This document shows, piece by piece, positions 18,484 to 47,962 of a DNA stretch of 64,000 nucleotides (its first letter is position 1; the number at the start of each line of letters is the position of its first letter). The stretch comes from Patescibacteria group bacterium (GTDB taxonomy: Bacteria; Patescibacteriota; Microgenomatia; Curtissbacterales; GWA2-41-24). The stretch lies in assembly GCA_038063735.1 (NCBI GenBank), contig JBBTUN010000012.1, forward strand, positions 1,595-65,594, in the 5' to 3' direction. A program made the translations under genes and the position numbers. Under the pieces are notes generated by a model. That model did no database searches, was not told the DNA's origin, and saw only the letters and a list, made by a program, of their open reading frames with translations.

Positions 18484-20102
18484 TTTGAAAATATTTCCTG
18501 AGCTATTTTCTCAAGCTCATCAGCTTTTACATCGACCACATCGCTTCTACCGACTGCGACAGTTGGGGTGCTTTCCCGTTTTGCCAAAATAAACTTTAGC
18601 CGAACCCGTCTGCCAATTGTTTCCTCCATTTTGCTATCTAACATATGCATTATTTTTGGCTCTTCAAGCTTGTCCTTATGAAATTTATAAAAAACTTCAA
18701 GTGTTAAACTTTCCCCATCAAAACCAAACGGTTTGGTAGATCTGAGCAAAGCAACAACATGGGCATTCAGTGGCCTAACTCTATTTAAGAATTCGCTCCA
18801 GTTTTTTTCAACCTCCACAAGACCTTTCCCCCCACTCCTGGGCCTTATTTCCATTTTGACATCGTCATCCTGTTCTTCCTTTGCCTGTAGTACACTCGAT
18901 GATTCTGTATGTTTTACTGCCTCTGATACTTTTGACACATTTGACTCATTTACTACCCTTACTCCAGCCTCTCCTATAAACTTGCATATTGCCAAAACAA
19001 GTGGAATTTGCGCCATCGGAAAAATCTTGATCTCCCCGTCGGCAATAATCAGTAAACGTATTAGTGTCTGCAATTTTTCAAATTCGATACTGTCGGCAAG
19101 TTGCTTAAGATCTGCCTGGCTATTCTCGTCCAACTCTTCAAAATTGTCAGCACCAATTTTAAAATACAAAACCTTTTCCAAATACAAGACTGTTTGCCTT
19201 ATAAATAAAGAGATGTCCACCCCCTCTTCAACAAGATCTTCTACAAAAAGTGCGGCAGGCTTGATTTCTGATCGAATTAACATTTCGACAAAGTTATAGA
19301 TCTGGTTTTTGCCACTAACTTTTGCAATTGCCGAAACATCTTCTTGCTTTATTTCACCGTTTGCACTTAACTGGTCCAAAAGCGAAACAGCATCCCTAAA
19401 CGATCCGTCGGCCACTTCTGCAATTTGACTCGCGCTGCCCTGGTCCAGTTTTATTTTCTCGCTCCTGGCAATTCTGGTAACAGCACTGGCAATATCAACC
19501 TTGCTTGCTCTTTTAAAATTAAACTTCTGCAGGCGCGATAAAATTGTTGCTGGTAGCTTGCTGTATTCGGTCGTTGCCAAAATAAAAATAGCGTGTTTTG
19601 GGGGTTCCTCGAGAGTTTTCAGGAGTGCATTGAACGCTTCCGTAGTTAACATATGCACCTCGTCGATAATATAAACCTTATAAGGAGAAGAAACTGGAGA
19701 GAGCTTAACCTTTTCCCGCAAATCTCGTATTTCGTCGATCCCGCGATTAGAAGCCGCGTCTATTTCGACAAGATCCAAAGACGAACCGTTTGTTATCGCA
19801 ATACAACTTTGGCACTTATTGCATGGTTCCCCAAAACGGTTAATAGTTAATGGTTCATGGTCAATAGATTCTTTTCCGTCCTTTCTTCTGTGAACTGCCA
19901 ACTTTGAACGGTAAACTTCACAATTAATCGCCTTTGCCAAAATCCTGGCTGTGGAAGTTTTCCCCGTACCCCGCGTGCCATAAAATAAATAAGCATGACC
20001 AATTTTCCCGCTTGTTAACTGGCTCTCAAGTGTTCTTTTAACCTCTTCCTGCCCAATAAGCTCGCCAAGCGTTTGAGGTCTATATTTTCTATAAAAAACC
20101 AT
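18480..20102 (-). CDS. dnaX: DNA polymerase III subunit gamma/tau
   Basis: AAA+ Walker A 'GTRGTGKTSTARILAKAINC', Zn module 'CNKCQSC'. The C-terminal part carries a repeat-derived 'SNVSKVSEAV' insert. Confidence 0.9.
   Translation of the reverse strand: MVFYRKYRPQTLGELIGQEEVKRTLESQLTSGKIGHAYLFYGTRGTGKTSTARILAKAINCEVYRSKLAVHRRKDGKESIDHEPLTINRFGEPCNKCQSCIAITNGSSLDLVEIDAASNRGIDEIRDLREKVKLSPVSSPYKVYIIDEVHMLTTEAFNALLKTLEEPPKHAIFILATTEYSKLPATILSRLQKFNFKRASKVDIASAVTRIARSEKIKLDQGSASQIAEVADGSFRDAVSLLDQLSANGEIKQEDVSAIAKVSGKNQIYNFVEMLIRSEIKPAALFVEDLVEEGVDISLFIRQTVLYLEKVLYFKIGADNFEELDENSQADLKQLADSIEFEKLQTLIRLLIIADGEIKIFPMAQIPLVLAICKFIGEAGVRVVNESNVSKVSEAVKHTESSSVLQAKEEQDDDVKMEIRPRSGGKGLVEVEKNWSEFLNRVRPLNAHVVALLRSTKPFGFDGESLTLEVFYKFHKDKLEEPKIMHMLDSKMEETIGRRVRLKFILAKRESTPTVAVGRSDVVDVKADELEKIAQEIFSK
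18915..18960 (-). repeat. dispersed repeat family 1 copy (GTATCAAAR 9-mer tandem), in frame in dnaX
   Basis: 'tgatacttttgacacatttgactcatttac'. Encodes SNVSKVSEAV. Confidence 0.6.
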
Positions 20103-20108
20103 TAGCGT

Positions 20109-20510
20109 CTATTCATGATGTCTTCCAATCAGATGTTCAGTCGCGTGTGCAGTTAAAAAAAACACCTCATCATCTACCATCACATCATTCCGGCTTGCAC
20201 TAAGCAAGACTTCCGGCCAACATAAAATAATGTCACCGAGTCTTAATGTCTCGTCAGGAGCATTTATAAAACCTTTCTTTGTTTCCTGGGTAACTTCCTC
20301 CAGTGGAAATGCCAACACTTCGTGGTTTTTGTTGTCTTTTAAATATAGAGTGGTTAAATTTCTCATTTTCCTTCTACCTACAACTGCAACAGAAACCTCA
20401 ACCTCACCCTGTAAGATCTTATTCTTAACCAGCGTTTCGATAATAGCTTTTCTAACAACTTTGCGGTTAACCGGATACCTCGTATCAGAAAGGATGTCAA
20501 CTTGAACCAT
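20109..20510 (-). CDS. ybeY: rRNA maturation endoribonuclease YbeY
   Basis: Conserved H-x3-H-x5-H metal site 'HATEHLIGRHH'. 133 aa. Confidence 0.65.
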   Translation of the reverse strand: MVQVDILSDTRYPVNRKVVRKAIIETLVKNKILQGEVEVSVAVVGRRKMRNLTTLYLKDNKNHEVLAFPLEEVTQETKKGFINAPDETLRLGDIILCWPEVLLSASRNDVMVDDEVFFLTAHATEHLIGRHHE

Positions 20511-20958
20511 TTATCTGCTTGAGCCTGGCAGTAACGATCTCGGAAACGACACCCCCATCCACTCGACCCTTTAGTTTTCCCATGATAACACCCATGACTT
20601 GCCCCACATTTGCGTTTGCTGGCAAACTCATACTGGCAATAACCTCATCAACAACCTTTCTAACTTCATCCTCACCCATTTGGGCCGGTAAATACTTGGA
20701 CAGTATTGCAAACTCCTCCTTCTCGCGACTAGCCAAATCATCGCGGCCGGCTTTATCGTAAGCATCAATTGATTCTTTTCTTTGTTTAGCACTTTTAACA
20801 ATTACACCGGTAACTTCTTCATCGGATAGTTCCCGACCAAGCTCAATTTGCTTGTTTTTTACCTCAGACATCAACAACCGAAGAGTAGAAGTCTTTACTC
20901 CCTCATTCGCCTTCATAGCACCAACCATGTCATTTTTTATATCATCAACAATACTCAT
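20497..20958 (-). CDS. GatB/YqeY domain protein
   Basis: Sequence typical of the YqeY family ('TSTLRLLMSEVKNKQIE...', 'ILSKYLP'). Confidence 0.65.
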   Translation of the reverse strand: MSIVDDIKNDMVGAMKANEGVKTSTLRLLMSEVKNKQIELGRELSDEEVTGVIVKSAKQRKESIDAYDKAGRDDLASREKEEFAILSKYLPAQMGEDEVRKVVDEVIASMSLPANANVGQVMGVIMGKLKGRVDGGVVSEIVTARLKQINGSS

Positions 20959-21010
20959 ATAATTTCTAACTCTTACCTACACCCTAGACACTATCCTCCC
21001 ATCCCTGTCT

Positions 21011-21199
21011 TCAAAACTTACTTTTGATATATTTCTTCCTGGCCATTTGGATCTTTTGTTGCTTGCGAAGCGACGGTTTAAGGTAATGCTCGCGTTTTTT
21101 AATTTCGGTTAGTATTCCTTCACTTTGAACTTTTTTATTAAACTTCCTAATCAAAGATTCCACCGATTCCCCCGGTTGTGCCGTAACTTTAGTACCCAC
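21011..21199 (-). CDS. rpsU: 30S ribosomal protein S21
   Basis: 62 aa, basic. 'SVESLIRKFNKKVQSEGILTEIKKREHYLKPSLRKQ' matches S21. Confidence 0.85.
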   Translation of the reverse strand: MGTKVTAQPGESVESLIRKFNKKVQSEGILTEIKKREHYLKPSLRKQQKIQMARKKYIKSKF

Positions 21200-21288
21200 T
21201 TATAAAAACACCCCCTCACAAAAATAATTATCAATTTCCAAACCCCAAACTCCAAGTTTTGTCATTTGAGTTTTGTAATTGGTCATTC

Positions 21289-21681
21289 TCATAGCTTCTC
21301 CCACTCTACTTTCCCGCCTGCCAAAAGATGCATATGCAGGTGTGGCACGTGCTGCAATCTCCCGCCATTAAAAATAAGCCTAAATCCTTCTAACTTTCTT
21401 TCTTTTACTAAGTTCGCTGCTGCCTTGTGCATCGCGACAAGTTCCTTAGAATCTGCATCTTCTATTGTCAAAACCGAAGCTATATGCCTTTTTGGAATAA
21501 TCAAAATATGAACGTTGGCAATAGGATTAATATCGTCTATTGCCAAAACAAACTCACTTTGATAAATCGGTTTCGATTTAATTTCACCGGCGATAATCTT
21601 ACAAAAAATACAATCCTTTTCCATTATATACCTCGCCCGCAGCACTGCTTCCTTGGCTAAAAATTTCGCTTTTTTTATCAT
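21289..21681 (-). CDS. HIT-family (histidine triad) hydrolase
   Basis: 'HVPHLHMHLL' histidine triad and 'CIFCKII' N-terminus. True start is probably the internal M at about 21624. Confidence 0.8.
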   Translation of the reverse strand: MIKKAKFLAKEAVLRARYIMEKDCIFCKIIAGEIKSKPIYQSEFVLAIDDINPIANVHILIIPKRHIASVLTIEDADSKELVAMHKAAANLVKERKLEGFRLIFNGGRLQHVPHLHMHLLAGGKVEWEKL

Positions 21682-24128: not shown

Positions 24129-25280
24129 TCAGGAGGCAGCAATCGTTTTTTTAACCAAATCCAATGTTTTTGCCTGAAAAATAGAAACTGCCAGGTACCG
24201 TTCCATATCTACTTTTTGCTCCGGCGTTAAATCCGTCTGGTTCACACCTTTTCCGGCATTTTCTACTTCCTCACGGCTAACTTCAATTTTTGCACCTGTT
24301 CCGATTTCGTCCAAAATCAATGTCGCTTTAACATTCTTCTCGGCCTGTACTCTCCACTTTGCCCGCAGCGCATCAACAGTCGTATTTTCATCCCTCAAAA
24401 AATCCTCCAGTTTTTTACCACTCGATTCTACCTGTTGGTTCAAACGCACCATAATCCGGTTTATCTCGTCATCAACCATTATGTCCGGCACATCAACCTC
24501 GCCAATCTTAGCAAGCTCCTCAAAAATTTCTTCTTCAAATTTAGCCTCTACCTGGTCCGTAACCAGTGTCTCCAAATCTTTTCGAACCAATTCCTTCAGG
24601 TGCAAAAGATCCCTTGCCCCTATTGCTTTGGCAAATTCGTCGTCAATTTTCCCCTCAGACTTCTTCTCGTCAACCTTATTCTCATCTTTAAGAAAAATCT
24701 TCTCACCATGCGCATCATAAATAAACTTTCCTTGCCCTTCCGTAGCTTTAGCGAAGGAGGGTTTACCTGCTTCCTCTTCTTCATTTGATACATTTGATAC
24801 TTTTGACTCGTTCGAAACCTTTTGCTTAACCCATGCCTCATAAATATTTTTAATGGACTGTGTAACATCTTCTTCCGTTACCTCTTTGGCTTTAATTTTT
24901 TTAACCTTCATTGCTTTCCAGTCTCCAAGTTTTACTTTTGATCTTTCTGTTAAAGTTGCCACAAAAGAAAAAGGTGCACTCTTTGACAAAGAATCCACAG
25001 CAACCTTGGGTTTTGTAATGGGAATAATATTTTCTTTGTCAAATATATCGGAAAGATGTTGGGAAACCAAAAAATTAGCTGCCTCGTTTAAGATTTTGGT
25101 TGCCCCAAGTTTGTCCTCGACCATAGTAATCGGAACATTGCCGGGCCTAAAACCATCTATTTTGACATCTTTGCCAAGCTCAGTAAGCGCATGCTCGTAA
25201 GCCTTATCAAAATCCGCCTTCGAAACATCGACTTTAACCTCAACCTTCCCTTTTTCGCCACGGGTAATTGTGTGCTGCAT
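24129..25280 (-). CDS. tig: trigger factor
   Basis: N-terminal ribosome-binding domain 'GFRPGNVP' motif, about 383 aa. Contains a repeat-derived 'SKVSNVSNEEEE' insert. Confidence 0.85.
   Translation of the reverse strand: MQHTITRGEKGKVEVKVDVSKADFDKAYEHALTELGKDVKIDGFRPGNVPITMVEDKLGATKILNEAANFLVSQHLSDIFDKENIIPITKPKVAVDSLSKSAPFSFVATLTERSKVKLGDWKAMKVKKIKAKEVTEEDVTQSIKNIYEAWVKQKVSNESKVSNVSNEEEEAGKPSFAKATEGQGKFIYDAHGEKIFLKDENKVDEKKSEGKIDDEFAKAIGARDLLHLKELVRKDLETLVTDQVEAKFEEEIFEELAKIGEVDVPDIMVDDEINRIMVRLNQQVESSGKKLEDFLRDENTTVDALRAKWRVQAEKNVKATLILDEIGTGAKIEVSREEVENAGKGVNQTDLTPEQKVDMERYLAVSIFQAKTLDLVKKTIAAS
24781..24815 (-). repeat. family 1 copy, in frame in tig
   Basis: 'tttgatacatttgatacttttgactc'. 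Encodes SKVSNVSNEE. Confidence 0.6.
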
Positions 25281-29570: not shown

Positions 29571-30509
29571 TTAAATATTTGTTTTAGAAACAGGCGGTGT
29601 TACTTTTTTGACTTCTTCAACTATTTCCGTCACCTTTTGCTCATTCGTCCCCTTTGGTCCCTCTGCAGCCCTTGACTCATTTGCTTGCCCTGAGCCCGAG
29701 CGAAGGGATACTTTTGATACCTCTTCCCCGCCTGTCACCTTTCCTTTAGCCAGTTCTTCCTTTGCCTTTTCTTTTGCCTGCTCCCCGGCAAGGGCAATCT
29801 TTTGTTGCGCGCTCTTTTTATCAAACGCCTCTTTTCCAACTCGATAAGCGTCAGCTATCGCGTTTGTCACAATCTCGATAGCCTTGATTGCATCATCATT
29901 GCCGGGTACTGGATATGTAATCAAAGAAAGATCGGCATTTGTGTCACAAATTGCAATGGATGGAACTCCCCGCTTAACAGCCTCGCGGCAGGCATTTTCT
30001 TCCCTCTTAACATCAATGACAAAAAGCGCATCGGGAAGCTTGTCCATATTCTCGACTCCACCATAAAAGCGGGTGAGCTTTGCAATATCCCGATCTATCA
30101 AAAGAAGTTCTTTTTTGGTCCTATCGCTAAATTCTCCGGATTCCTTTTTTGTCCTTAAATCTTTAAGCTTTCTAATGTTTTTCGTGGTCTGCTCAAAATT
30201 CGTGAGCAAGCCCCCTATCCAGCGCTCTGCAATGTACATTGCGCCGCTTTTGGTAGCAGCATCTACAACAATACTTCTTGCCTGTTTTTTAGAACCCAAA
30301 AAGATAATCGTTCCGCCGTTTGCCCCGACTTGTTTAACAAATTCACACGCTTCCTCTAACTTTTTAACAGTGTGCGCCAGATCAATTACATGGACTCCAT
30401 CCCGTGCGCCAAAAATAAACTGGCCCATTTTTGGGTTCCACCTGCGAACCTGATGACCAAAATGGACACCAGCCTCCAAAAGTTCCTGCATCGTTGGTAA
30501 CTTACTCAT
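29571..30509 (-). CDS. rpsB: 30S ribosomal protein S2 with low-complexity C-terminal extension
   Basis: 'LLEAGVHFGHQVRRWNPKM' S2 signature. The C-terminal tail includes a repeat-encoded 'EEVSKVSLRSGSGQANES'. Confidence 0.9.
   Translation of the reverse strand: MSKLPTMQELLEAGVHFGHQVRRWNPKMGQFIFGARDGVHVIDLAHTVKKLEEACEFVKQVGANGGTIIFLGSKKQARSIVVDAATKSGAMYIAERWIGGLLTNFEQTTKNIRKLKDLRTKKESGEFSDRTKKELLLIDRDIAKLTRFYGGVENMDKLPDALFVIDVKREENACREAVKRGVPSIAICDTNADLSLITYPVPGNDDAIKAIEIVTNAIADAYRVGKEAFDKKSAQQKIALAGEQAKEKAKEELAKGKVTGGEEVSKVSLRSGSGQANESRAAEGPKGTNEQKVTEIVEEVKKVTPPVSKTNI
29672..29722 (-). repeat. family 1 copy with palindromic core, in frame in the rpsB tail
   Basis: 'ttgcttgccctgagcccgagcgaagggatacttttgatacc'. 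Encodes EEVSKVSLRSGSGQANES. Confidence 0.7.
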
Positions 30510-31074: not shown

Positions 31075-32775
31075 TCACTTCCTTCTAATAGAACCTTTTG
31101 CAGCTCCTATTTTTCTGTCTATCCTTTTTTCGCTTTCTCTTCTTGCCAAATCATAAGATTTATAATCAACAAACTTAAGCGCAAAAACTAAGCTCGGGTG
31201 GACTTTCTTTACCGCCTCAACTTTTAAATGCTCAACATGTCGGTAGTCCGGATGCCCTTGCGGTCCGGTCCTAAGCTCCGCCTCCCACGCCAGTTCCCGC
31301 AAATTTTCCCACTGGTACCAACGCATTCTATTACCCATCATTACTACGTACTGCGCTTGATCCGGATATTTTTTTGCGATTTTTTTATAAAACTTGTCAA
31401 TTTTATTTGCTGCATCAACATATGGTTTATCAAGCTTTGCCCAAACTAAATCCGGCGGAACATCAAACCCCAACTCTGTTGTAAACCGTTGCCTCTCCTG
31501 CGTCAGCATCCTGTGCCTGTGCAAATCGCGGTAAGCACCAAAGTTTGCAATTATGTCGAATTTATAATAGGTATTTTCAAAAGCGCGCACCAACCGGTGC
31601 TGCCTAACCTGCCGCTTGCCAACAACCTTTTTGATAATTAAAAGTTTTTCCCGCGCAGTTAGCTTTTCAACCTGCTCCTTTATCTGGGAAAACGAAACCG
31701 TCGCGTATTTATATAAAAGGCTCGCCACAATTCTATCTTCGGCATCACTATCCCACTCCACAAGTTCCACATCCTGGGTCTTTGATACATTTGATACCTT
31801 TGATACTTTTGATACCAGTCCCTCTAACGCCTTTTCTGTTTTAGAAACATACTTTTGGTAAATTTTCCCCCGAGGGCTGGTTGCCCTCTCCACCATCGAT
31901 GGGATAACCTGCATCAGTTCCTTTTGGGCCGCTTTTCCAAGTTCCCTGATTTCATAAATAGGAGATGCCAAACATTTGGTTATTACATATTCAAACGCCT
32001 GTCCCACACCAAAAAAGCCAACATTCGTTAAAGTTCCAGCCGGCAAATATGCGCGAAGCACGTCATAGGCTTTAGCGTTTATCGTTTCCCTGTATGCCCT
32101 ATCCGTTTGGTCTTTTCCCTGGACAAACTTTTTTCGGAGTATTTTAGAGAGTGGTTCAAGCGACTGTGAATAACGGGAAAAGAGCATATTCATAAGGCGC
32201 TTATACTCCGCACCATAAGAAGATTTAACAAGATCCGGATCCATAAAACATTGCCACCAGCCGCCAATTTTTGTATTAAAAGCAACATATCGCGTCGATT
32301 TCTCCAAGGGGGCAAAACCAATCCGAAAATCCTCCAAAGTTTTGGTTGCAATCTGCGAAACGCCTTCTAAAAATAAATGCGCACCGGCCATTTGCGCAAT
32401 CGAATCATCGCCATATGCAGCCAACCATCTGGCGAAAAAATCGCGCGCGCGCCTGCTGTTTACAACTGCCTCCCATCCTCCATGGCTATGCAGATAATCA
32501 ACAAAAGAGGTCAGCTCCGTCTTCATCACTTCGGCCTCCCTGATTGATTTCTTTTCCGCACCTTCCAAATTGGGTTCCAAAATCGGCTTTATATACTCGT
32601 CATAAAATAATCGCCTGACACCTTTTGTCGATCTGGAATATCGGGACGCAAGCGCCCCCAAAATTTCACTTGGCAAATACTTTGCAGCAAAAACATTCCT
32701 GTCCAAATTTGTAAAAAAGGGGGAAATGTACCAAGCCTCTTCCTTCGTAAATTTTTCAGCTTGAGAACTAATCAT
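31075..32775 (-). CDS. thyX: FAD-dependent thymidylate synthase ThyX (long, about 566 aa)
   Basis: ThyX 'RHR' flavin/dUMP motif 'YRDLHRHRMLTQERQ' and an N-terminal 'ALASRYSRS'-like segment. Double-length relative to canonical ThyX. Contains an in-frame 'LVSKVSKVSNVSKTQ' repeat insert. Confidence 0.7.
   Translation of the reverse strand: MISSQAEKFTKEEAWYISPFFTNLDRNVFAAKYLPSEILGALASRYSRSTKGVRRLFYDEYIKPILEPNLEGAEKKSIREAEVMKTELTSFVDYLHSHGGWEAVVNSRRARDFFARWLAAYGDDSIAQMAGAHLFLEGVSQIATKTLEDFRIGFAPLEKSTRYVAFNTKIGGWWQCFMDPDLVKSSYGAEYKRLMNMLFSRYSQSLEPLSKILRKKFVQGKDQTDRAYRETINAKAYDVLRAYLPAGTLTNVGFFGVGQAFEYVITKCLASPIYEIRELGKAAQKELMQVIPSMVERATSPRGKIYQKYVSKTEKALEGLVSKVSKVSNVSKTQDVELVEWDSDAEDRIVASLLYKYATVSFSQIKEQVEKLTAREKLLIIKKVVGKRQVRQHRLVRAFENTYYKFDIIANFGAYRDLHRHRMLTQERQRFTTELGFDVPPDLVWAKLDKPYVDAANKIDKFYKKIAKKYPDQAQYVVMMGNRMRWYQWENLRELAWEAELRTGPQGHPDYRHVEHLKVEAVKKVHPSLVFALKFVDYKSYDLARRESEKRIDRKIGAAKGSIRRK
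31779..31816 (-). repeat. family 1 copy (3.5 tandem 9-mers), in frame in thyX
   Basis: 'tttgatacatttgatacctttgatacttttgatacc'. Encodes LVSKVSKVSNVSK. Confidence 0.7.
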
Positions 32776-33439: not shown

Positions 33440-34844
33440 TTGTTGCCTTGTCTATTTTAGAAGCAACAGCAAGGCGTGATCCAGAATATCTGTCAGATCT
33501 CGAACCTTCATACTTCATTTTTACCGGAGCAGCTAATTTTTCAAAAGTAAACGCGCATATTGGCATACCACAATACAATATTGCTGGCTTTGGCCCTAAG
33601 TTCCCGAGCTCCAAAACAGGCGCCCCGTTCCAGCCCGGATCAAACCTTGCAGCCGTCGAATGCACTAAAATTCCAAGCCGGGCAAGCGAACTTTTCCCCT
33701 CAAGCCTGCCCAAAATGTCCGGAGCCAATTTCAAAACTTCAGAAGTCGAAGCAATCGCAAACGCACCCGGTTCCAAAATAAACGGATCGCCGTTGGTAAG
33801 ATTGATTTCTTCCATCGCATCCTCTGGTAAACCACGCCTTGTGTCTATAAACCGATAGGCACCGGACCTAAACAGTTTAATATTCCCACCCAAATGAAAA
33901 TCGATAGAAACCTGGTCGATATTATCTTTCCAGTTGGCGGGCAGCGGCGAAATTTTGATATCGCCTTTCTCTACCGCTTCTTCGATTAACCAGTCCGGCA
34001 ATATACCTGTCATATTTTTACTATTTTCTTGTTGCTTATTCGCAGAAAAGCTCTGCTTATTCGTAGAAAAGCTCTGCTTATCTCTTGTCTCTTGTTGCTT
34101 CTTGCTTATTGCTTGTCTCTTATTCACCATATGGTCATAAACAATCTGGCTCCATGTCTCCATTTTTTTGAAATGGCGACCCAGTTCATCTACGGTCATC
34201 ATTGTACCCGATTTATGCTCGTCTCGGACATTAATTTCACTGCTATCCCCAGACAACATTATTACAAGTCCTACATGCACCAACCCAACATCATTAGCGT
34301 CGTGGTTTAAAATCCCCAAAAACTTAGCCGTATATTTTCCCTTATAATCTATCTCTTCTTCAAACTCCCGCTTTGCCCATTCCATCACTTCATCACCTTT
34401 GATACCTTTGATACTCTTGATACCTTTGACGTCTTTTAGATTTATATGTCCCCCAACACCAATAGAATACATATTAGCCAAGCGTTTATCCGTATGCGTT
34501 CCTTTTCTCTGCATCGCTAAAATTTTCCCACCTGCCTCAAAAATCAAATAAGGAATAACCTGTTTCCACTTGGGGTCACTTTCCACCTCGCCACGTGCCA
34601 TAAACTTATGGCTTTTTGTGATTACTTTTAAATACTTAGGAAGATTTTCAGAGCGTATCCCATTCCAAATCTCGCCGTCAAAAAGTTCCGTCCGCGAAAC
34701 AACCATCACCCGTTCGGCTTCCTTGCCCACCAAAACTTTCTTGACATCCATAGCTTTAGCGACGGATGTAGTGACGGCGGGTTTACCCTGAAGAACTTTC
34801 TTTTGAGATTTTTTCGGCATCAGAATTTTCGGGGCAGAGGTCAA
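33426..34844 (-). CDS. dcd: fusion protein: N-terminal NUDIX hydrolase domain plus C-terminal dCTP deaminase (Dcd/dUTPase-fold) domain
   Basis: Nudix box 'GGHINLKD...EWAKREFEEEIDY', interrupted by a repeat-encoded 'VKGIKSIKGIKGD' insert. K/Q-rich linker. C-terminal 'ILPDWLIEEAVEKGDIKISPL...EPGAFAIASTSEVLKL...GWNGAPVLELGNLGPKPA' is a typical dCTP deaminase. Confidence 0.7.
   Translation of the reverse strand: MTSAPKILMPKKSQKKVLQGKPAVTTSVAKAMDVKKVLVGKEAERVMVVSRTELFDGEIWNGIRSENLPKYLKVITKSHKFMARGEVESDPKWKQVIPYLIFEAGGKILAMQRKGTHTDKRLANMYSIGVGGHINLKDVKGIKSIKGIKGDEVMEWAKREFEEEIDYKGKYTAKFLGILNHDANDVGLVHVGLVIMLSGDSSEINVRDEHKSGTMMTVDELGRHFKKMETWSQIVYDHMVNKRQAISKKQQETRDKQSFSTNKQSFSANKQQENSKNMTGILPDWLIEEAVEKGDIKISPLPANWKDNIDQVSIDFHLGGNIKLFRSGAYRFIDTRRGLPEDAMEEINLTNGDPFILEPGAFAIASTSEVLKLAPDILGRLEGKSSLARLGILVHSTAARFDPGWNGAPVLELGNLGPKPAILYCGMPICAFTFEKLAAPVKMKYEGSRSDRYSGSRLAVASKIDKATNGKK
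34024..34125 (-). repeat. repeat family 2 (purine-rich GCAACAAGARACAAG / tandem 23-mer), in frame in the NUDIX-Dcd linker
   Basis: 'gcttattcgcagaaaagctctgcttattcgtagaaaagctctgcttatctcttgtctcttgttgcttcttgcttattgcttgtctc'. Encodes KQQETRDKQSFSTNKQSFSANKQ. Confidence 0.55.
34396..34432 (-). repeat. family 1 copy, in frame in the Nudix box of the NUDIX-Dcd fusion
   Basis: 'cctttgatacctttgatactcttgatacctttgac'. Read in another frame, it encodes VKGIKSIKGIKGD. Confidence 0.7.
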
Positions 34845-35300: not shown

Positions 35301-37448
35301 TTACTCCACTTTTTTATCAGATTGCAATTCTTCTTTTCTTTCAATGTTTGATACCTTTGATTTATCCTGAGATTTATCGAAGGACTCGTTTGCTTGCCCT
35401 GAATCTTTTTGAAGGGATACTTTTGATACTTCTCCCTCTGGCTTTGTCCAACTTGCAAAAGTACAATTAGGATAATTGGCGCATCCCCAAAATGGCCTTC
35501 CCCGCTTTGTCCGCTTCATAACAACCTGCCCACCATCCACGGGACAAACAAGCCCGGTCTCTTCGTTCAAAGCCTTCGTATTTTTACAATCAGGAAATCC
35601 GCTGCAAGCCAAAAACTTTCCGTACTTTCCATAGCGTACAACCATAGGCTTGCCACATCTTTCGCAAACATCACCCGTTTCTTCAACTTCTACCTTCATT
35701 TTCTCTGCCTCTTCGGCGACTCTATCTACCTTTTCCTCAAACGGTTTCCAAAACTTCTCCATTAGCTGCGGCATCTCGAGTTTTCCAAGTGCAATATCGT
35801 CAAGTCCGTTTTCCATATCTGCTGTAAACGAGTAATCGATAATATCGCCAAAATATTTTTCCAAAAACTCTATCGTTGTCTTGCCAATAGGCGTTGGCCC
35901 AATTTTCTTGCCTTCCAGCCTTTCGATATAAAGCCTGTCGTACAAAGTAGAAATTGTCGGCGCGTAAGTAGAAGGCCTGCCGATTCCATGCTTTTCCAAA
36001 TCGCGAATAAGAGTTGCCTCTCCGTATCTTGCCGGCGGCTCTGTAAACTTTTGCTGCGGATTAATATTCTTAAAGTCCAGCGGTTCGTCCTTTGCCAAGT
36101 CTGGCAAAACCTGCTCGGTAATCGGCGCTTTGGCATAAACCCTGTACCATCCGTCAAACTTTATTTTCTGACCATTCACCCGAAGCAAATAACTTTTTGC
36201 TTTTTGCTTTTTGCCTTTTGCTTCTACATCTACCGCCGTTTCGTCAACAACTGCTTCTGCCATCTGGCAAACAACCATCCTTTTCCAGATCAACTCATAC
36301 AATTTCCTTTCATCCTGACTTATCACTTGCTTGCCCTGAGCTTGATCGAAGGGTAACTTGTCACTTGTCACTTCTATACTCGTTGGTCTTATCGCTTCAT
36401 GTGCTTCCTGCGCAAGTTTGGATTTTATTTTGTATGCCCGTGACTTTGGCGGTAAATAATTTTTTCCATACTTTGCTTCTATAAATTTACGCACGGCGCT
36501 AACCGCTGCCGGCGCCAAATTAACAGAATCGGTTCTCATATAAGTAATCAAACCGTTTTCGTAGAGGCTTTGGGCAACACTCATCGTTCGCTTTGGCACA
36601 AAACCCAAAACATTTGCGGCCCGCTGTTGCAGCGTAGAGGTAGTAAAAGGCGGATTAGGATATTTTTTAACCTCTTTAGATTCAACGGAGGCAACAGTGT
36701 ACTTTGCAGTTTTTAAATCTGCGACAACTTCATCCGCCTGCTTTTGATTTTTAACACTCGCCTTTTTCCCGTCAACTTTCTGAAGTGTCACCGTAAAGAT
36801 TTCACCCTCCAACACCTTTGATACCTCTACCTCAACCACCCAATATTCCTCGCTCTTAAACCCCTCTATCTCCCGTTCGCGCTCAACAACCAACCGCAAA
36901 GCAACAGATTGCACCCTACCAGCGCTGAGTCTACTTTTAACTTTTTTCCAAAGTAGTGGCGAAAGTTTATAACCGACAAGCCTGTCCAGCACCCTTCTTG
37001 CTTGCTGCGCCTCAACTAAATTCTGGTCGATACTTCGCGGATGCCCAAAAGCAGCAAGCACCGCATCTTTTGTAATTTCATGGAAAACTACCCGCTGCAC
37101 ATTTCGCTTAGATGCCGGAGTTTTAGATTTTGCGTCTATTACCTTTAAGAGATTCCAGGCTATTGCTTCGCCTTCGCGGTCAGGATCCGGTGCAAGGTAT
37201 AAATGACTAACACCTTCCGTCGATTTAACCAGCTGGTTAACCATTTTTATTTTGTTTTTAGGAATTACGTATTTAGGTTTAAAACCATGATCCACATCTA
37301 CCCCAAACTCACCTTTGGGCAAATCCCGAACGTGTCCCATAGAAGCAATAATCTGGTAATCTTTCCCCAAAAACTGACTTAACGTACGAGCTTTGGTTGG
37401 GCTTTCTACTATTACAAGATTTTTTGACATAATTATTTTAGGTATCAA
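35301..37448 (-). CDS. topA: DNA topoisomerase I
   Basis: Toprim N-terminus 'LVIVESPTKARTLSQFLG...ASMGHVRDLP', active-site region 'ITYMRTDS', C-terminal C4 zinc ribbons. Carries at least three in-frame repeat inserts. Confidence 0.9.
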   Translation of the reverse strand: MIPKIIMSKNLVIVESPTKARTLSQFLGKDYQIIASMGHVRDLPKGEFGVDVDHGFKPKYVIPKNKIKMVNQLVKSTEGVSHLYLAPDPDREGEAIAWNLLKVIDAKSKTPASKRNVQRVVFHEITKDAVLAAFGHPRSIDQNLVEAQQARRVLDRLVGYKLSPLLWKKVKSRLSAGRVQSVALRLVVEREREIEGFKSEEYWVVEVEVSKVLEGEIFTVTLQKVDGKKASVKNQKQADEVVADLKTAKYTVASVESKEVKKYPNPPFTTSTLQQRAANVLGFVPKRTMSVAQSLYENGLITYMRTDSVNLAPAAVSAVRKFIEAKYGKNYLPPKSRAYKIKSKLAQEAHEAIRPTSIEVTSDKLPFDQAQGKQVISQDERKLYELIWKRMVVCQMAEAVVDETAVDVEAKGKKQKAKSYLLRVNGQKIKFDGWYRVYAKAPITEQVLPDLAKDEPLDFKNINPQQKFTEPPARYGEATLIRDLEKHGIGRPSTYAPTISTLYDRLYIERLEGKKIGPTPIGKTTIEFLEKYFGDIIDYSFTADMENGLDDIALGKLEMPQLMEKFWKPFEEKVDRVAEEAEKMKVEVEETGDVCERCGKPMVVRYGKYGKFLACSGFPDCKNTKALNEETGLVCPVDGGQVVMKRTKRGRPFWGCANYPNCTFASWTKPEGEVSKVSLQKDSGQANESFDKSQDKSKVSNIERKEELQSDKKVE
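35346..35430 (-). repeat. family 1 composite copy (9-mers plus two palindromic cores), in frame in the topA C-terminus
   Basis: 'tttgatacctttgatttatcctgagatttatcgaaggactcgtttgcttgccctgaatctttttgaagggatacttttgatac'. Encodes EVSKVSLQKDSGQANESFDKSQDKSKVS. Confidence 0.7.
36186..36228 (-). repeat. family-2-like A/G-rich tandem (GCAAAAA)n, in frame in topA
   Basis: 'ctttttgctttttgctttttgccttttgcttc'. Encodes EAKGKKQKAKS. Confidence 0.35.
36321..36372 (-). repeat. family 1 palindromic-core copy, in frame in topA
   Basis: 'cacttgcttgccctgagcttgatcgaagggtaacttgtcacttgtcac'. Confidence 0.6.
36812..36832 (-). repeat. family 1 short copy in topA
   Basis: 'cacctttgatacctctacc'. Encodes VEVSKVLEG. Confidence 0.4.
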
Positions 37449-37477
37449 AAGTCACAAAAGTATCATAAGTATCAAAT
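37441..37477 (+). repeat. family 1 copy, inverted orientation, intergenic between topA and the four-helix-bundle gene
   Basis: 'ggtatcaaaagtcacaaaagtatcataagtatcaaatg'. Confidence 0.6.
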
Positions 37478-37485: not shown

Positions 37486-37842
37486 CTAGAAAGAGTTGGA
37501 ATACTTATTTAGAAGATACCCCACTTCCCCTTTCTTTAGGTCAAGAACTTTATACTCCCCCTGCAGAACAAAACCCAACTCTAGTGAAACCTCAAGGTCT
37601 GATTCTAATTCGAAAAGAGATCCAACTGCAATCTCCAAAAATCTTTTCTTATCAAGTTTTGACCTCCTGGAATAACCCTCAGCAATATTAGAAAGCACAG
37701 AAACTGCTGCTCTTCTCATCTGACTTTTCAGACCAAACTCTTCACTTTTTGGAAACTTTGTCGTCACATTGTAAACCATTACAACCAAGTCTTTAGCTCT
37801 TTGCCAAACAATAAGCTTCTGATAACCCTTCGGTTCACTCAT
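37486..37842 (-). CDS. four-helix-bundle protein (23S rRNA intervening-sequence protein / Avd-like family)
   Basis: 'LIVWQRAKDLVVMVYNVTTKFPKSEEFGLKSQMRRAAVSVLSNIAEGYSRRS...FLEIAVGSLFELESDLEVS' matches the four-helix-bundle family. Free-standing here and flanked by inverted repeat copies. Confidence 0.7.
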   Translation of the reverse strand: MSEPKGYQKLIVWQRAKDLVVMVYNVTTKFPKSEEFGLKSQMRRAAVSVLSNIAEGYSRRSKLDKKRFLEIAVGSLFELESDLEVSLELGFVLQGEYKVLDLKKGEVGYLLNKYSNSF

Positions 37843-37866: not shown

Positions 37867-37977
37867 GTTTGATACCTTTGATACTCTTGACCCCTTTTGT
37901 ACTTTTCTAACTTTTGTCCCTTGATATACAAACTCACTTTTGATACCTTTGATACGTTTGACGCCCTTGATACTTTC
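37867..37977 (-). repeat. family 1 long copy, intergenic between the four-helix-bundle gene and the csaA-like gene
   Basis: 'tttgatacctttgatactcttgacccc...cttttgatacctttgatacgtttgacgcccttgatac'. The reverse complement begins GGTATCAAAAGT, as does the left copy. Confidence 0.65.
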
Positions 37978-41482: not shown

Positions 41483-42540
41483 TTTTTAACAAAACCGGAA
41501 AGCTCCATTAAGGAAAGTTCCGACGCAATTTTCTCGATCGGCATACCAATTTCGCGGGCAATAGTGTCAATATGCTTTGCCTCCCCATCCAGTATCGACA
41601 AAATCTTTTGCTGGTCTTTATCTCCAGGGATAATTTGTTGCTTTTTGCTTATTTCTTGTTGCTTTTTGCGCTCCACATCCAACCCCGCTAAAACATCCGC
41701 GGCATTTGTTACCGGAGTCACCCCGTCTTTTATTAAATTATTAACTCCCTCTGCTGTTTTGGCAGTTATTGGCCCCGGCACCGCAAAAACCTCACGCCCT
41801 TGTTCGGCGGCACTTCCTGCCGTAATCATTGAACCGCTGTCTATTGCTGCCTCCGTTACCAAAACCCCCAGAGATAGTCCCGAAATTATTCTGTTTCTGG
41901 CGGCAAAATTGCTTTGCACCGGCGGGAATCCAAGCGGGAATTCGGATACGACTGCCCCGCTTTTGGCAATTTCTTCTGCCAGTTTTTTATTTTCCGGCGG
42001 ATAGACCAAGTCCACCCCACATCCCAAAACTGCAATTGTTCTCCCGCCAGCCTCCAGCGCCGTTCTATGCGCAATACTATCTATTCCCCGCGCCAAACCA
42101 CTAACGATTGTTAAACCATTTTTTGCAAGATCAAAAACCAATCTTTCTGTAACCTGTCGACCGTATGGCGTGGCGTTTCGACTCCCCACAACCGCAACAG
42201 CCAAATCATCGCCGGGCAAAATAGTGCCTTTGTAATACAAAACGGGCGGGCAGCCGGTAATTTGCCGCAAATTGGCCGGATACTCGTCCTCTACCATAGA
42301 CACAACTTTTATGCCGGCCGCATAAACTTTGGCAAGATAAATATTAGGGTCAACTTTACTACGGAAATCAACTATGGAAAGCTTTGTTTTGGCATCAATT
42401 TTGAGTTTACTGATCTCGCTGTCGGACGCTTCCCAAAATTTTTTAAGTGTCTTAAAACTTTTTCGAAGATAACCAAACGTAACCGTCCCAACTCCACCAA
42501 TCGCACTCACAGCTACCCAACACGCAAGTTCCTTATTCAC
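41455..42540 (-). CDS. dprA: DNA processing protein DprA (Smf)
   Basis: Rossmann-like 'VAVVGSRNATPYGRQVTERLVFDLAKNGLTIVSGLARGIDSIAHRTALEAGGRTIAVLGCGVD'. Confidence 0.85.
   Translation of the reverse strand: MNKELACWVAVSAIGGVGTVTFGYLRKSFKTLKKFWEASDSEISKLKIDAKTKLSIVDFRSKVDPNIYLAKVYAAGIKVVSMVEDEYPANLRQITGCPPVLYYKGTILPGDDLAVAVVGSRNATPYGRQVTERLVFDLAKNGLTIVSGLARGIDSIAHRTALEAGGRTIAVLGCGVDLVYPPENKKLAEEIAKSGAVVSEFPLGFPPVQSNFAARNRIISGLSLGVLVTEAAIDSGSMITAGSAAEQGREVFAVPGPITAKTAEGVNNLIKDGVTPVTNAADVLAGLDVERKKQQEISKKQQIIPGDKDQQKILSILDGEAKHIDTIAREIGMPIEKIASELSLMELSGFVKNYGSGVWGA
41634..41670 (-). repeat. family 2 copy, in frame in dprA
   Basis: 'ttgttgctttttgcttatttcttgttgctttttgcg'. Encodes KKQQEISKKQQ. 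Confidence 0.5.
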
Positions 42541-43515: not shown

Positions 43516-44041
43516 TAAACTTGCCAGCTTTTTTAGCCTGCTCTTTTCTGAATTCCAAAGTTGTCATGCTGGCATTTTTATTAAGTTCCAAAACCAGCTC
43601 CTCTATACTCCGCTCGTCAAACGCAAGCGCAACGCTTTTGTAATTCTTTATTGCAGCTCGTATCAGCGTTTGCCCGCCAATATCCATACTTTCCGGGAAA
43701 ATAGATTCGTCAGGCGCATACAAATCAACAATAACCAAATCAAAAGCCTCCAAGCCTTCTTTTTTTAATTCCTCCAAATGTAAGGGGTTTTTTTTATCGG
43801 CCAATATTCTCACAAAATTCACCCTATCCAAACTTTTAACACGTCCGCTAAAATCAAAACCGCGAACAACAGATTGGCCTTCAAAGCCCTTTGCGCGAAC
43901 GTAATTGATCGTACCTTCCGTTCCCCAAAACTTCGTCCTGTGTTTATCAAGCAGCTCGAGTAGGCCGTCCAAAACGCCCTTTTCAAAAACCGCTGCAAAT
44001 ATATTTAAAACTTCAATTTTATCCATAATTTTAAGCAACAA
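43469..44041 (-). CDS. purH: IMP cyclohydrolase domain protein (PurH N-terminal MGS-like domain as a stand-alone gene)
   Basis: 'GRVKSL', 'FDLVIVDLYAP' and 'MDIGGQTLIRAAIKNYKSVA' align with the PurH IMPCH domain ('GRVKTLHP', 'VVVNLYPF', 'IDIGGPTMVRSAAKNH'). Confidence 0.75.
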   Translation of the reverse strand: MLLKIMDKIEVLNIFAAVFEKGVLDGLLELLDKHRTKFWGTEGTINYVRAKGFEGQSVVRGFDFSGRVKSLDRVNFVRILADKKNPLHLEELKKEGLEAFDLVIVDLYAPDESIFPESMDIGGQTLIRAAIKNYKSVALAFDERSIEELVLELNKNASMTTLEFRKEQAKKAGKFIAERTKLEAELFEKI

Positions 44042-44108
44042 GAGACAAGTAATAAGTGACGGGCATTTTTCTTATACTTATTGCCTATTTCTTTTTGCTT
44101 ATCACTTC
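44035..44108. repeat. family 2 copy in the spacer between the two purH domain genes
   Basis: 'gcaacaagagacaagtaataagtgacgggcatttttcttatacttattgcctatttctttttgcttatcacttc'. Confidence 0.5.
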
Positions 44109-45036
44109 AATGTTTAAAATGCCTTACCCCTGTAAACACCATCGTAATTCCGTGCTTTTTGGCCTCCGCAATCACTTTGTCGTCGTTAATCGATCCACCA
44201 GGTTGAATTATTGTCGATATCCCTGCTTTTGCTGCCAGTTTTACATTATCCGGAAACGGAAAAAACGCATCGCTTGCAAGTACCGCCCCCTTAGTTTTAA
44301 CCCCGGCTTGCTTCATAGCCAAGTGAACAGAGTTGACCCTATTCGGTTGCCCGGTTCCCATCCCAAGCATCGACACGTCCCGCACAATAACTATCGCATT
44401 ACTCTTAACATGTTTTACGACTTTCCACGCAAACTCCAAGTCCGCAAGTACCCGCTTGGACGGTTTACCTCCATTTACTATTTTCCATTTACTAGAATCC
44501 TCCTCAACATCATCTGAAGTTTGAATTAAATAACCACCAAAAGCGCGGGTAAATTCCAAAAGTTTCGGCGGTTTTTCCGCTTTAACAACTCGCATCTTGG
44601 CACTTCTCCTTTTAAGCCTTTCCAAAACTTCGAGGGTATAATCCGGTGCGACCAAAAGCTCAAAAAACTTGCCATGCATTGCCTCGATCATTGCCATAGT
44701 CGGAGGCCTGTTAACTGCAATAATTCCACCAAAGGCACTGATATTATCCGCTGCGTACGCCGCATTAAAAGCCTCGGCAAGATCGTCTCGCGACGTTATT
44801 CCGCTTGGGTTAGCATGCTTAATTATTGCAACTGTCGGGGCGCTAAACTCACAAACTAAATTCCAAGCATGGTTAGCGTCCCCAATATTATTATGAGAAA
44901 GCTCGATTCCCCAAAGCTGTTCAAAGCCGCTATTACCATCTTCCACGTAAAACGCACTCGCCTGGTGCGGGTTTTCTCCATAACGAAGATCTTTCAATTT
45001 CGCTAGATTTATTTTTAAATTCTTATCTAAAACCAT
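44107..45036 (-). CDS. purH: AICAR transformylase domain protein (PurH C-terminal domain as a stand-alone gene)
   Basis: 'LRYGENPHQASAFY', 'AFGGIIAVNR', 'VKSNAIVIVRD...GMGTGQPNRV', 'ASDAFFPFPD', 'IQPGGSINDD...FTGVRHFKH' match the AICARFT domain. Start placed at 'MVLDKN' to avoid overlapping the PBP2 gene. Confidence 0.8.
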   Translation of the reverse strand: MVLDKNLKINLAKLKDLRYGENPHQASAFYVEDGNSGFEQLWGIELSHNNIGDANHAWNLVCEFSAPTVAIIKHANPSGITSRDDLAEAFNAAYAADNISAFGGIIAVNRPPTMAMIEAMHGKFFELLVAPDYTLEVLERLKRRSAKMRVVKAEKPPKLLEFTRAFGGYLIQTSDDVEEDSSKWKIVNGGKPSKRVLADLEFAWKVVKHVKSNAIVIVRDVSMLGMGTGQPNRVNSVHLAMKQAGVKTKGAVLASDAFFPFPDNVKLAAKAGISTIIQPGGSINDDKVIAEAKKHGITMVFTGVRHFKH

Positions 45037-45040
45037 ATCT

Positions 45041-46801: not shown

Positions 46802-47854
46802 TTAGTCTTTGGATCTGAAACTTACCTTTTTAAGAAGTGCATCGTTAGTTAGCGCCTTTGCACAACCGACAACAACACAGTAAAGCGGATCGGTAGCAAC
46901 GTTAACAGGCATCTTGGCCTCCTGGGCAATTAATTTTGGCAAGCCAAAAATAAGCGCTCCTCCCCCGCAAAGCATAATCCCTTTTTCAGAAACATCCCCC
47001 GCAAGTTCCGGCGGCGCATCTTCAATTGTTTCCACAACTGCATCCACTATCGACTTGATAGTAGGCGCCAGCGCTTCGCGAATTTGAGTAGAAGTTAGTT
47101 TTATAGACTTTGGCAAACCTTTTTCCAAATCCCGTCCGCGAACTATCATTTGCTTTTCTACCTGCATTGGGTAGGCACTCCCCAAAAGCATCTTTACTTC
47201 CTCCGCGGTTTTTTCACCCAGCGCCAGTCCATACCTGGAACGCACATAATTTACAATGTCCCTGTCCATCGCATCCCCTCCAATTTTTAGAGATTTACCG
47301 GAAACTATTCCACCCAGAGAAATTACGGCCATGTCACTCGTCCCACCCCCAATATCAACTATCATCGAGCCGCGCGCCTCCTCTACATTAAGCCCGGCAC
47401 CAATTGCCGCCGCCATCGGCTCTTCAATTAAATATGCTTCCCGCGCGCCGGAATCATACGCGACGTCAAAAAGCGCCCGCCTTTCCACTTCTGTTACCTG
47501 AGAAGGGATTCCCAGAACAACTCTTGGCCTTGGTATAGAAATTAAACGCCCCGGTTTCGAATGCACTTTCTTTACAAAATAAGAAAGCATCGCCAGTGTT
47601 GTATCGTAGTCGGAAATTACACCATCCTTCAGGGGTCTTACGGTAGTTATATTAAGAGGTGTTCTACCGATCATTTTTCTGGCATCCCCACCAATTGCAA
47701 TCACTCTCCTGCTTTTTTTGTGAAGTGCCACGATCGAAGGCTCGCGGATGACGATCCCCTTTCCGGCAACATGAATTAAAGTATTTGCAGTTCCTAAGTC
47801 AACACCCAAGTCAGAAGAAAAGTAGCCTAAGATATTATCGACAATAGGAATCAT
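46802..47854 (-). CDS. mreB: rod-shape determining protein MreB
   Basis: Actin-fold motifs 'DLGTANTLIHV', 'IVDIGGGTSDMAVISLGG', 'MLCGGGALI'. Confidence 0.9.
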   Translation of the reverse strand: MIPIVDNILGYFSSDLGVDLGTANTLIHVAGKGIVIREPSIVALHKKSRRVIAIGGDARKMIGRTPLNITTVRPLKDGVISDYDTTLAMLSYFVKKVHSKPGRLISIPRPRVVLGIPSQVTEVERRALFDVAYDSGAREAYLIEEPMAAAIGAGLNVEEARGSMIVDIGGGTSDMAVISLGGIVSGKSLKIGGDAMDRDIVNYVRSRYGLALGEKTAEEVKMLLGSAYPMQVEKQMIVRGRDLEKGLPKSIKLTSTQIREALAPTIKSIVDAVVETIEDAPPELAGDVSEKGIMLCGGGALIFGLPKLIAQEAKMPVNVATDPLYCVVVGCAKALTNDALLKKVSFRSKD

Positions 47855-47911
47855 AGAAGCGCCACAAAGTATAACGCATCAGGAAGAAGTTTAGTAGAAG
47901 GTTTACATCAT

Positions 47912-47962
47912 GCTTATTGTTCGAGCTTGCTCGCCCTGAGTTTTGTCGAAGGGTCGAGAACT
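47912..47962 (-). repeat. family 1 palindromic-core copy, intergenic upstream of mreB
   Basis: 'gcttattgttcgagcttgctcgccctgagttttgtcgaagggtcgag'. Confidence 0.55.

Follow-up and report, generated by a model that had tools for sequence, protein, structure and literature searches.

In cyanobacteria, short tandem heptamer repeats (short tandemly repeated repetitive sequences, STRR) were reportedly described by Mazel and co-workers in 1990. Rickettsia palindromic elements (RPE) are, in the account of Ogata et al. (2000) relayed in PMC3184786, confined to Rickettsia, about 105-146 bp long and clearly palindromic, and the small dispersed repeats (SDR) of Nostocaceae, 21-27 nt long and divided into eight families, are reported only from Nostocaceae in the summary of Elhai et al. 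(2008) given in PMC5861425. The 23S rRNA intervening sequence (IVS) of Coxiella is an RNase III-processed hairpin with an S23p open reading frame (ORF), and strains differ in the number of GACAGAT heptamers that precede this ORF (PMC4990558). ORFs of this family, here called IVP, have been found in rRNA insertions of the Candidate Phyla Radiation (CPR) as well (PMC11270868). Here we analyse a stretch of 64,000 nucleotides (the window) from contig JBBTUN010000012.1 of a Patescibacteria group bacterium, in which tandem arrays of the 9-mer GTATCAAAR and a core motif of the form CCCTTCG-N5-7-CTCAGGGCAAGC lie in frame inside essential genes and also between genes. We think it probable that these are two kinds of repeat, the arrays belonging to the arms of an IVP cassette and the core to a motif shared across phyla, and that both are carried as selfish or neutral passengers filtered by selection. 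Alignment with close relatives shows gains, losses and replacements of both kinds at the DNA level.

Two kinds of short repeat and an IVP cassette

TopA of the window is 100% identical to a protein of a metagenome-assembled genome named 'Patescibacteria group bacterium', and the next relatives of this TopA are annotated as Candidatus Curtissbacteria. Exact matches to GTATCAAAR number 14 against 1.57 expected, a count reached by none of 100 shuffled sequences, and 11 of the 14 are on the minus strand; the majority of genes are on the minus strand and GC skew is negative across the whole window. We defined as an array at least two units of the 9-mer with at most two mismatches per unit. The window holds eight such arrays (about 1.9 in shuffles), of which five are intragenic and seven are on the minus strand; the copy at 37441, given in the first-pass annotation as the exception to a single orientation, is the right arm of the IVP cassette. 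The most repeated 12-mers of the window come from the 9-mer family, and TTGCTTGCCCTGAG has 5 matches against 0.64 expected. Matches with one mismatch are scarcely enriched (58 against 42.8 expected). The spacing of the array units is unsuitable for promoter -35/-10 boxes, and this assignment was rejected.

The core is present in four to five window copies. A profile built from the cores of unrelated genomes recovers those at 36328-54, 29682-709 and 47933-56 together with a weak one at 35392-402, with E-values from 2e-7 to 2e-4. A core-like match on the plus strand at 51594-51613 (profile E 1e-3) was set aside: it falls in the conserved ALREAQGK helix of SHMT, adds no length relative to the Pfam model and is probably native SHMT sequence that resembles the motif. 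Direct fusion of array and core is confined to the tails of rpsB and topA; in tig the two are 21 nt apart, the array upstream and a 33-nt variant of the core downstream. What had been listed as about 13 copies of one element is thus real as repeats, but comprises at least two kinds of very short DNA-level repeat. From that list the arrays at 37441 and 37867 and a core near 47912 were recovered, while the entries at 26-42, 5112-27 and 36816-24 and the dnaX pair are inseparable from chance or ancestry.

Translation of the 9-mer gives VSK in five genes but GIK/SIK in the NUDIX box. For the core the peptide is SLRSGSGQA in rpsB and in the tail of topA, PFDQAQGKQ at topA site 2 and, in a third frame, PSTSSGQA in Tig of other Curtissbacteria, and both repeats also occur intergenically. 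Since both are read in several frames and are found between genes, they are DNA-level and not peptide-level elements. The VSKVS-type and 'SGQANES' peptides noted earlier therefore describe only part of the coding copies, those of the NUDIX box and topA site 2 being different. Read from the sequence, all sense frames of both the 9-mer and the core are free of stop codons, and the antisense direction of each contains one. The core had also been described as a hairpin with a conserved stem. This stem is 4 bp (CCCT/AGGG), and RNA folding of four core copies gave z from +0.99 to -0.91, no better than shuffles, which rules out a stable hairpin; at 47929-47953 the stem extends to 8 bp, yet the fold z is merely -0.9. 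An Rfam scan returned a single tRNA and nothing else (no rRNA) in the window, and no match in 18 core-bearing loci.

The only array on the plus strand adjoins a gene for a four-helix-bundle protein of the S23p/Avd-like family (Table 1), which matches PF05635 at 2e-34 and TIGR02436 and has a solved homologue, 2GSC. Arrays in opposite orientations flank this gene, and in predicted folds they pair as RNA to enclose the ORF (z -3.2 in the window and -4.9 in the orthologous cassette of a relative, L003). The cassette sits between a tRNA-binding-domain gene and topA (35301-37448, minus strand), with remnants of the old topA upstream region between the left arms. It occupies the same site in L003 and L302 and is missing from L001 and L004; TopA of L003 and L004 is 89.5% identical, yet only L003 has the cassette. 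Inverted arrays bound the cassette in the window, L003, L302 and L304, and beside these inverted arms there is no visible target duplication.

This arrangement is widespread in the family, which comprises 21,073 representative clusters at E <=0.001. We fetched 80 metagenomic loci with IVP relatives (41-75% identity), 60 of which had enough flank. When the upstream flank was compared with the reverse-complemented downstream flank, a score of at least 12 was reached by 72% of the 60 IVP loci and by 7% of 121 other ORFs from the same loci (Mann-Whitney p 3e-17). Tandem arrays make up the flanks, with a unit of 7-9 nt that varies from one locus to the next. In the nearest IVPs this unit resembles GT(A/T)TCAAAR, and among IVPs with 52-75% identity related units are kept (GTATCAAAR, GTTTCAAAG, GTATCATAA). 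For 10 of 25 loci the arm unit was present again in another part of the locus, whereas the figure for foreign units was 22 of 592, and the extra copies are often 'empty' hairpins of inverted arrays (z -5.8 to -9.7). From these comparisons we think it probable that the 9-mer arrays represent, in this lineage, the inverted repeats that form the arms around an IVP cassette, the arm unit being present in other places as solo arrays of a single orientation. The at least 120 viral matches to GTATCAAARGTATCAAAR were discarded as uninformative, being tandem repeats in unrelated genomes, and no IVP gene lies beside viral 9-mer dimers (0/296 loci).

The rRNA IVSs of Coxiella and Leptospira (PMC4990558) resemble the cassette in having an IVP-family ORF in the loop of a long stem of inverted flanks, variable-number short tandem repeats beside the ORF and a sporadic presence and absence; the window cassette has both the PF05635/TIGR02436 ORF and inverted flanks that pair into a long stem. 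It differs from them in lying outside rRNA, between protein genes, instead of in an rRNA helix, and in having arms made wholly of tandem 9-mers, a unit that is also scattered as solo arrays inside protein genes. The TAACTGA direct repeats (PMC4679880) and the STRR likewise repeat one 7-9-nt unit in tandem at many loci, frequently close before a start codon, and are patchy across phyla; the GTATCAAAR-type unit, too, is found at many loci, including those of L001-L004 and L381. Those repeats, however, are described as nearly all intergenic and were not linked to IVP, whereas the present unit is in frame in essential genes and in cassette arms. A predominantly intergenic position near start codons does hold for the arrays of L001 and L003, while five of the eight window arrays are intragenic.

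The link between arm unit and solo arrays would also suit a functional role. The arrays could be cis elements, either sites at which the IVP protein, RNase III or some other RNA/DNA binder binds or processing takes place, or pairing targets of an antisense arm on an IVP-topA transcript, and either variant would join dnaX, thyX, dcd, topA, rpsB and tig into one post-transcriptional circuit. Such a role is suggested by the sequence shared between arm and solo arrays, by the related units kept by related IVPs, by the recurrence of the arm unit within IVP loci, by arrays that reach start codons in relatives, by the sole antisense array (37442-77), which is complementary to all intragenic arrays, and by the conservation of the core across phyla. 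We nevertheless consider it unlikely: the sites are not conserved between close relatives, different repeat families swap at the same positions, and S23p of Coxiella is apparently not made in vivo (PMC4990558).

An oriented, over-represented 9-nt word also recalls DNA uptake sequences, which would have been enriched by biased natural transformation in a lineage that depends on uptake. Known DNA uptake sequences are also hosted by poorly conserved coding segments, and the window contains dprA. Uptake sequences are single words of 9-12 nt, about one per kb, that arise mainly by substitution; here the units are in tandem, have only 14 exact copies in 64 kb, arise by insertion and not by point substitution, and are tied to IVP arms. 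This explanation is hardly credible.

Insertions in essential genes and the same sites in relatives

Pfam confirms the host genes named at first pass (dnaX, tig, rpsB, thyX, the NUDIX-Dcd fusion and topA), and every intragenic copy keeps the reading frame, as had been claimed. The coordinates are collected in Table 1.

Table 1. Repeat copies, the IVP cassette and related features of the window, and the TopA sites in the AlphaFold model.
Feature	Position	Strand	Description
9-mer arrays (array search)	18921-38, 24783-809, 31780-815, 34397-423, 35346-63, 37867-84, 37938-55	minus	
9-mer array (array search)	37442-77	plus	sole plus-strand array in the window
dnaX	18921..18938	minus	two degenerate 9-mer units (GTGTCAAAA GTATCAGAG), residues 389-394 VSKVSE; weak copy
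tig core variant	24729..24761	minus	33-nt insertion CCCTCCTTCGCTAAAGCTACGGAAGGGCAAGGA, encodes PSFAKATEGQG
tig array	24783..24809	minus	three 9-mer units, inter-domain linker, ESKVSNVSN
rpsB tail	29683..29720	minus	one 9-mer unit fused to core (GTATCAAAA GTATCCCTTCGCTCGGGCTCAGGGCAAGC), read VSKVSLRSGSGQA; core profile E 2e-6
thyX	31780..31815	minus	four 9-mer units (VSKVSKVSNVSK), linker before Thy1 domain
NUDIX-Dcd	34397..34423	minus	three 9-mer units forming a 27-nt in-frame insertion in the NUDIX box, read GIKSIKGIK
topA tail composite	35346..35429	minus	unit, core with diverged left half (VSKVSLQKDSGQA), degenerate second core (SFDKSQDKS), two units (KSKVSN)
topA site 2	36327..36350	minus	24-nt core insertion TTCGATCAAGCTCAGGGCAAGCAA, FDQAQGKQ
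topA site 1	36816..36824	minus	single 9-mer unit (VSK), beta-hairpin tip, hot spot in orthologues
IVP right arm	37442..37477	plus	four 9-mer units, opposite orientation, between IVP stop and topA start codons
IVP gene	37486..37842	minus	118-residue four-helix-bundle protein, 23S rRNA intervening-sequence (S23p)/Avd-like family
IVP left arms	37867..37973	minus	proximal 2-unit array (37867-84) and distal 4-unit array (37938-73), sense orientation, upstream
Hairpin of inverted heptamer arrays (xxxxAAG then CTTxxxx)	44028..44112	minus	intergenic, downstream of AICARFT gene; RNA fold z -2.9
Intergenic core copy CCCTTCGACAAAACTCAGGGCGAGC	47929..47953	minus	between ORF 47968-48693 and mreB; profile E 2e-4
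TopA site 1	residues 209-216		tip of beta-hairpin
TopA site 2	residues 367-374		loop, pLDDT <50 (369-374)
TopA site 3	residues 411-418		beta-hairpin loop
TopA tail	residues 673-715		disordered, pLDDT <50

Three insertions have clean junctions at the DNA level, with only short microhomology such as CAAAGG. In the NUDIX box the addition is exact and is missing from L001, L003 and L004 in a codon-wise alignment. The tig core variant is a clean indel relative to L381, which reads GGTAAG/AAGTTT where the window has GGTAAA[33 nt]AAGTTT, and its peptide is absent at this position from all other Tig in the alignment; L003 was unusable for this comparison because the gene after proS there is not tig. 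The peptide of topA site 2 is unique to the window among 32 aligned TopA sequences, one of which (P0010) has a shorter related 'TQGKQ' there. Its DNA junction was compared with L003, its flanking VTSDKLP is common among orthologues, and together with the preceding CCC the insert makes up a full core at 36329-36353, the best match to the cross-phylum profile (E 2e-7).

At other sites the history is more complex. The tig array is present in L381 (86% identical) and missing in L382 (88%) and in most other Curtissbacteria Tig. The rpsB element lies beyond PF00318 (10-223), and RpsB of L382 (78% identical) ends 54 residues sooner. The dnaX pair sits between PF12169 (252-368) and PF20964 (430-511), in a linker that differs in the L381 orthologue. 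At the thyX site L001 has a related array and L003 and L004 have a different palindromic repeat, and in L382 (87% identical) an unrelated loop of about equal length stands there; the thyX array hence replaced sequence instead of adding to it. The topA tails of orthologues carry other repeat peptides. 'EVSK' at TopA site 1 is common in orthologues, some of which have it expanded to VSKVSKVSD or VSKVTKVTK, and the VSK unit at this site may be ancestral or recurrent. Most intragenic copies nevertheless appear from these alignments to be lineage-specific insertions, and the comparison with orthologues, proposed as a check when the repeats were first noted, bears out clean gains of 27 nt (NUDIX), 24 nt (topA) and 33 nt (tig) as well as the 54-residue rpsB tail.

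Mapping onto protein structure was another proposed check. In an AlphaFold model of TopA (mean pLDDT, the predicted local confidence, 70.6) the sites fall in loops, beta-hairpins and the disordered tail, and by Pfam boundaries the repeats of dnaX, tig, thyX and dprA lie between domains; the intragenic sites are loops, linkers or tails. Several of them are hot spots that hold differing repeat families among relatives (four in TopA, one in Tig and one in ThyX).

Other families were also seen at these hot spots. They include AAGGCCAGGCC/AAGGCCTGGCC palindromes that encode KGQAL peptides, with thyX and rpsB of L003 and L004 among the carriers examined, and PSFA-type motifs. TopA of other Curtissbacteria has a palindromic 'GPVSSFPPASARS...ELRAVGSPSRTATP' insert of about 50 residues (alignment A1, columns 541-606), and KQETGNKKQET is present in both tig and dnaX of different Curtissbacteria genomes (dnaX of L381, tig of P0123). 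ThyX of the window (31075-32775, minus strand) has 566 residues, of which the best Thy1 match covers 338-528; its long N-terminal half is conserved, has weak matches or none, and meets the Thy1 domain at the repeat hot spot.

Tandem repeats with heptamer and nonamer units abound in the window as a whole: Tandem Repeats Finder (TRF) reports 43 loci against 14 in dinucleotide shuffles, and rows with period 7 or 9 number 31 against 3.35 (maximum 6) in the same shuffles. In the spacer after the AICARFT gene, where the window has a hairpin of inverted heptamer arrays, L001 and L003 have GTATCAAAR arrays reaching as far as the following start codon, and the arrays of L004 consist of GAAATTT, so that one site carries three repeat families.

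These observations bear on whether any dispersal is needed at all. Local low-complexity linkers might have grown by slippage, with the shared unit a product of convergent codon or peptide preference for flexible, hydrophilic K/S/V-rich segments. This would fit the location of all sites in disordered or loop regions, the abundance of many different short tandem repeats in the genome and the 'EVSK' already present at TopA site 1 in many orthologues and expanded in some. It is already strained by the reading frames and the intergenic copies. The identical 9-nt unit is found in two frames, in spacers and in both orientations around the IVP gene, the non-repetitive core of 24-33 nt arrives as clean one-step insertions, and the same units lie at non-homologous sites in several relatives. 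We regard local growth as distinctly improbable, and return below to the selection-filtered passengers that we favour.

Heptamer arrays also lie in coding sequence at 19839-19867, 34033-34124, 36193-36223, 41638-41669, 53542-54257 and 55216-56595, their hosts being the dnaX zinc module, the NUDIX-Dcd linker, topA site 3, the dprA linker, folD and priA. The heptamer-derived insert of folD is about 23 residues long; priA has five heptamer arrays, and Pfam recognises only its 3'-DNA-binding domain. Elsewhere in the window, dockerin type I domains are encoded in three adjacent ORFs (7273-9969, minus strand), which is unusual for a small CPR genome.

The core motif across phyla

Exact matches to CCCTTCG-N4-10-CTCAGGGCAAGC number 56 in viral contigs, and species-representative genomes hold at least 120. 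The hosts include Acidobacteriota, Chloroflexota, Cyanobacteria (Nodularia, Anabaena), Planctomycetota, Pseudomonadota and many Patescibacteria, with a GC content of 33-73%. As about 30 chance matches were estimated for this pattern in 596 Gb, the count by itself carries little weight, and the argument is carried by the non-random loops and by contigs with multiple copies. The loops are 5-6 nt long, and [AG]C..G is found in 91 of the 125 genome matches listed, against about 4 expected; the motif of about 24 nt is CCCTTCG[AG]C..GCTCAGGGCAAGC (loci L125-L300; window 29683-29707, 36329-36353 and 47929-47953). Some contigs have several cores with stuttered half-units.

As in the window, foreign cores lie in frame within conserved proteins, namely YchF, PolA, a helicase and Ser/Thr kinases, and in YchF and PolA they are additional residues when set against the solved structures of YchF and Klenow. 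Of the cores, 8.2% have flanking tandem repeats of period 6-10, as do 0.6% of the control positions, which are mostly coding; this association may reflect only a shared preference for permissive DNA. String searches of the literature for the core sequence and its peptides found no paper, and the cross-phylum core appears to be undescribed in the literature searched. The core matches SDRs in size class and in its presence in Nodularia and Anabaena, and both are dispersed elements of about 24 nt that are apparently mobile without an obvious enzyme. The SDR description in the summary cited above does not extend to in-frame copies in essential genes of CPR bacteria.

Palindromes GTCATTCTGA...GATCCTTCGCTNCGCTCAGGATGAC with the CCTTCG...CTCAGG skeleton of the core were also seen in L302 (4146-4163 and 5129-5146), L341 and L351, and this shared skeleton suggests a wider super-family of related small palindromes. 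The first-pass annotation had missed three things: the arrays are arms of an IVP cassette, the core is cross-phylum and not lineage-specific, and the window has a general richness in 7- and 9-nt repeats.

Origin of the repeats and what they mean

The first-pass annotation had likened the repeats to RPE, Correia and REP-type elements. With RPE they share in-frame insertion of selfish repeats into essential protein genes, at permissive positions and absent from orthologues. The window pieces are, however, arrays of 18-36 nt in 9-nt units and a motif of 24-33 nt, far from the RPE length of about 100-150 bp; they lack a stable palindromic stem-loop, as the fold z-scores above show, and the core is shared across phyla. 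Miniature inverted-repeat transposable elements (MITE) and Correia elements have terminal inverted repeats and target-site duplications, neither of which is found at the 27-, 24- and 33-nt junctions. Repetitive extragenic palindromic (REP) sequences and REPINs (PMC3116915, PMC3733652) are likewise short (20-40 nt), high-copy and strand-biased, but they are extragenic imperfect palindromes of 20-40 nt with a GTAG/CGTC head, whereas the window copies begin GTATC, have a 4-bp stem and are mostly intragenic. The behaviour of the repeats is therefore RPE-like, as the in-frame insertions missing from orthologues had suggested, but membership in RPE, MITE/Correia or REP fails on size, structure and termini, and no transposase was found in the 63 of 73 window ORFs scanned.

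The repeats might still be classical non-autonomous elements of MITE, REP/REPIN or PATE type, moved by a transposase in trans, with RAYT or an IS200/IS605 Y1 enzyme acting on single-stranded DNA as candidates. Presence/absence polymorphism among close relatives would be expected of such elements, and the strand bias fits the leading strand (negative GC skew; 11 of 14 units on the minus strand). Acidobacteriota cores are nested in GTAG-headed palindromes typical of REPs (REP classes in PMC3733652), and the closest sequenced relative (GCA_000404925.1, L382) has an rve_3 integrase-core fragment at 11939-12259, just downstream of tig, which is the sole transposase-like feature in the Curtissbacteria loci examined. 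We find this explanation quite doubtful. The window copies are without terminal inverted repeats, target duplications or a GTAG/CGTC head, the core hairpin is unstable, no transposase is encoded in the window ORFs scanned (63/73) and none recurs near cores, and the pieces are shorter than any described MITE and mostly intragenic.

We propose instead that selection acts as a filter on the copies. A copy in an essential gene would persist only if its length were a multiple of three, if it lay in the sense orientation, where it is stop-free and gives hydrophilic K/S/V/Q/G peptides, and if it fell in a surface loop, an inter-domain linker or a C-terminal tail. Under these conditions the copies would be selfish or neutral passengers filtered by selection and not adaptive protein segments. 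The length of the arrays would change by replication slippage. New loci would, at best guess, arise by template switching or ectopic conversion between copies at short microhomologies, or alternatively through a trans-acting activity linked to the IVP cassette.

Several results weigh against passengers of this kind. No transposase, integrase, reverse transcriptase or RAYT was found in the 63 of 73 window ORFs scanned, and the three clean junctions (27, 24 and 33 nt) have neither target-site duplication nor terminal repeat, so that mobility is read from presence and absence. The thyX array is a replacement and not an insertion, and 'EVSK' and 'VTSDKLP' of TopA are old segments, common to orthologues down to about 65% identity. 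The orientation bias extends to the intergenic copies, where selection on translation offers no explanation for it. As for the core, tandem arrays accompany only about 8% of cores, IVP genes are adjacent to none of them (0/296 loci), and no protein family recurs near cross-phylum cores, the top clusters being phage genes or common families. Over genomes of 33-73% GC some 20 nt of the core stay conserved, which neutral selfish DNA fails to explain and which hints at a function or a conserved recognition partner. Core conservation and the intergenic orientation bias would both be compatible with a functional role.

Selfish short repeats in coding sequence are a kind already known. The general IVP-array architecture and the cross-phylum core may each be new in their own right. 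More tentatively, IVS-type elements could be more than an oddity of rRNA and form a very widespread undescribed class, in which a four-helix-bundle, Avd-like gene lies within inverted arrays of a lineage-specific 7-9-nt unit, empty hairpins and solo arrays are spread genome-wide and, in CPR bacteria, also into essential genes, and the IVP protein or the arm RNA recognises the arrays; alongside it would stand the cross-phylum motif of about 24 nt, used in all three frames, which would imply a conserved recognition partner.

CPR genomes are tiny and strongly reduced, yet this one keeps gaining repeats in dnaX, topA, thyX, tig, rpsB and a NUDIX box. The repeat sites provide a natural map of insertion-tolerant places in essential proteins, and they call for caution among annotators and phylogeneticists, as variable segments of CPR marker proteins are repeat-derived. 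The link to IVP makes the 30-year-old puzzle of 23S rRNA intervening sequences and their S23p ORFs testable, and the cross-phylum core raises the question of a conserved machinery that recognises or generates the motif.

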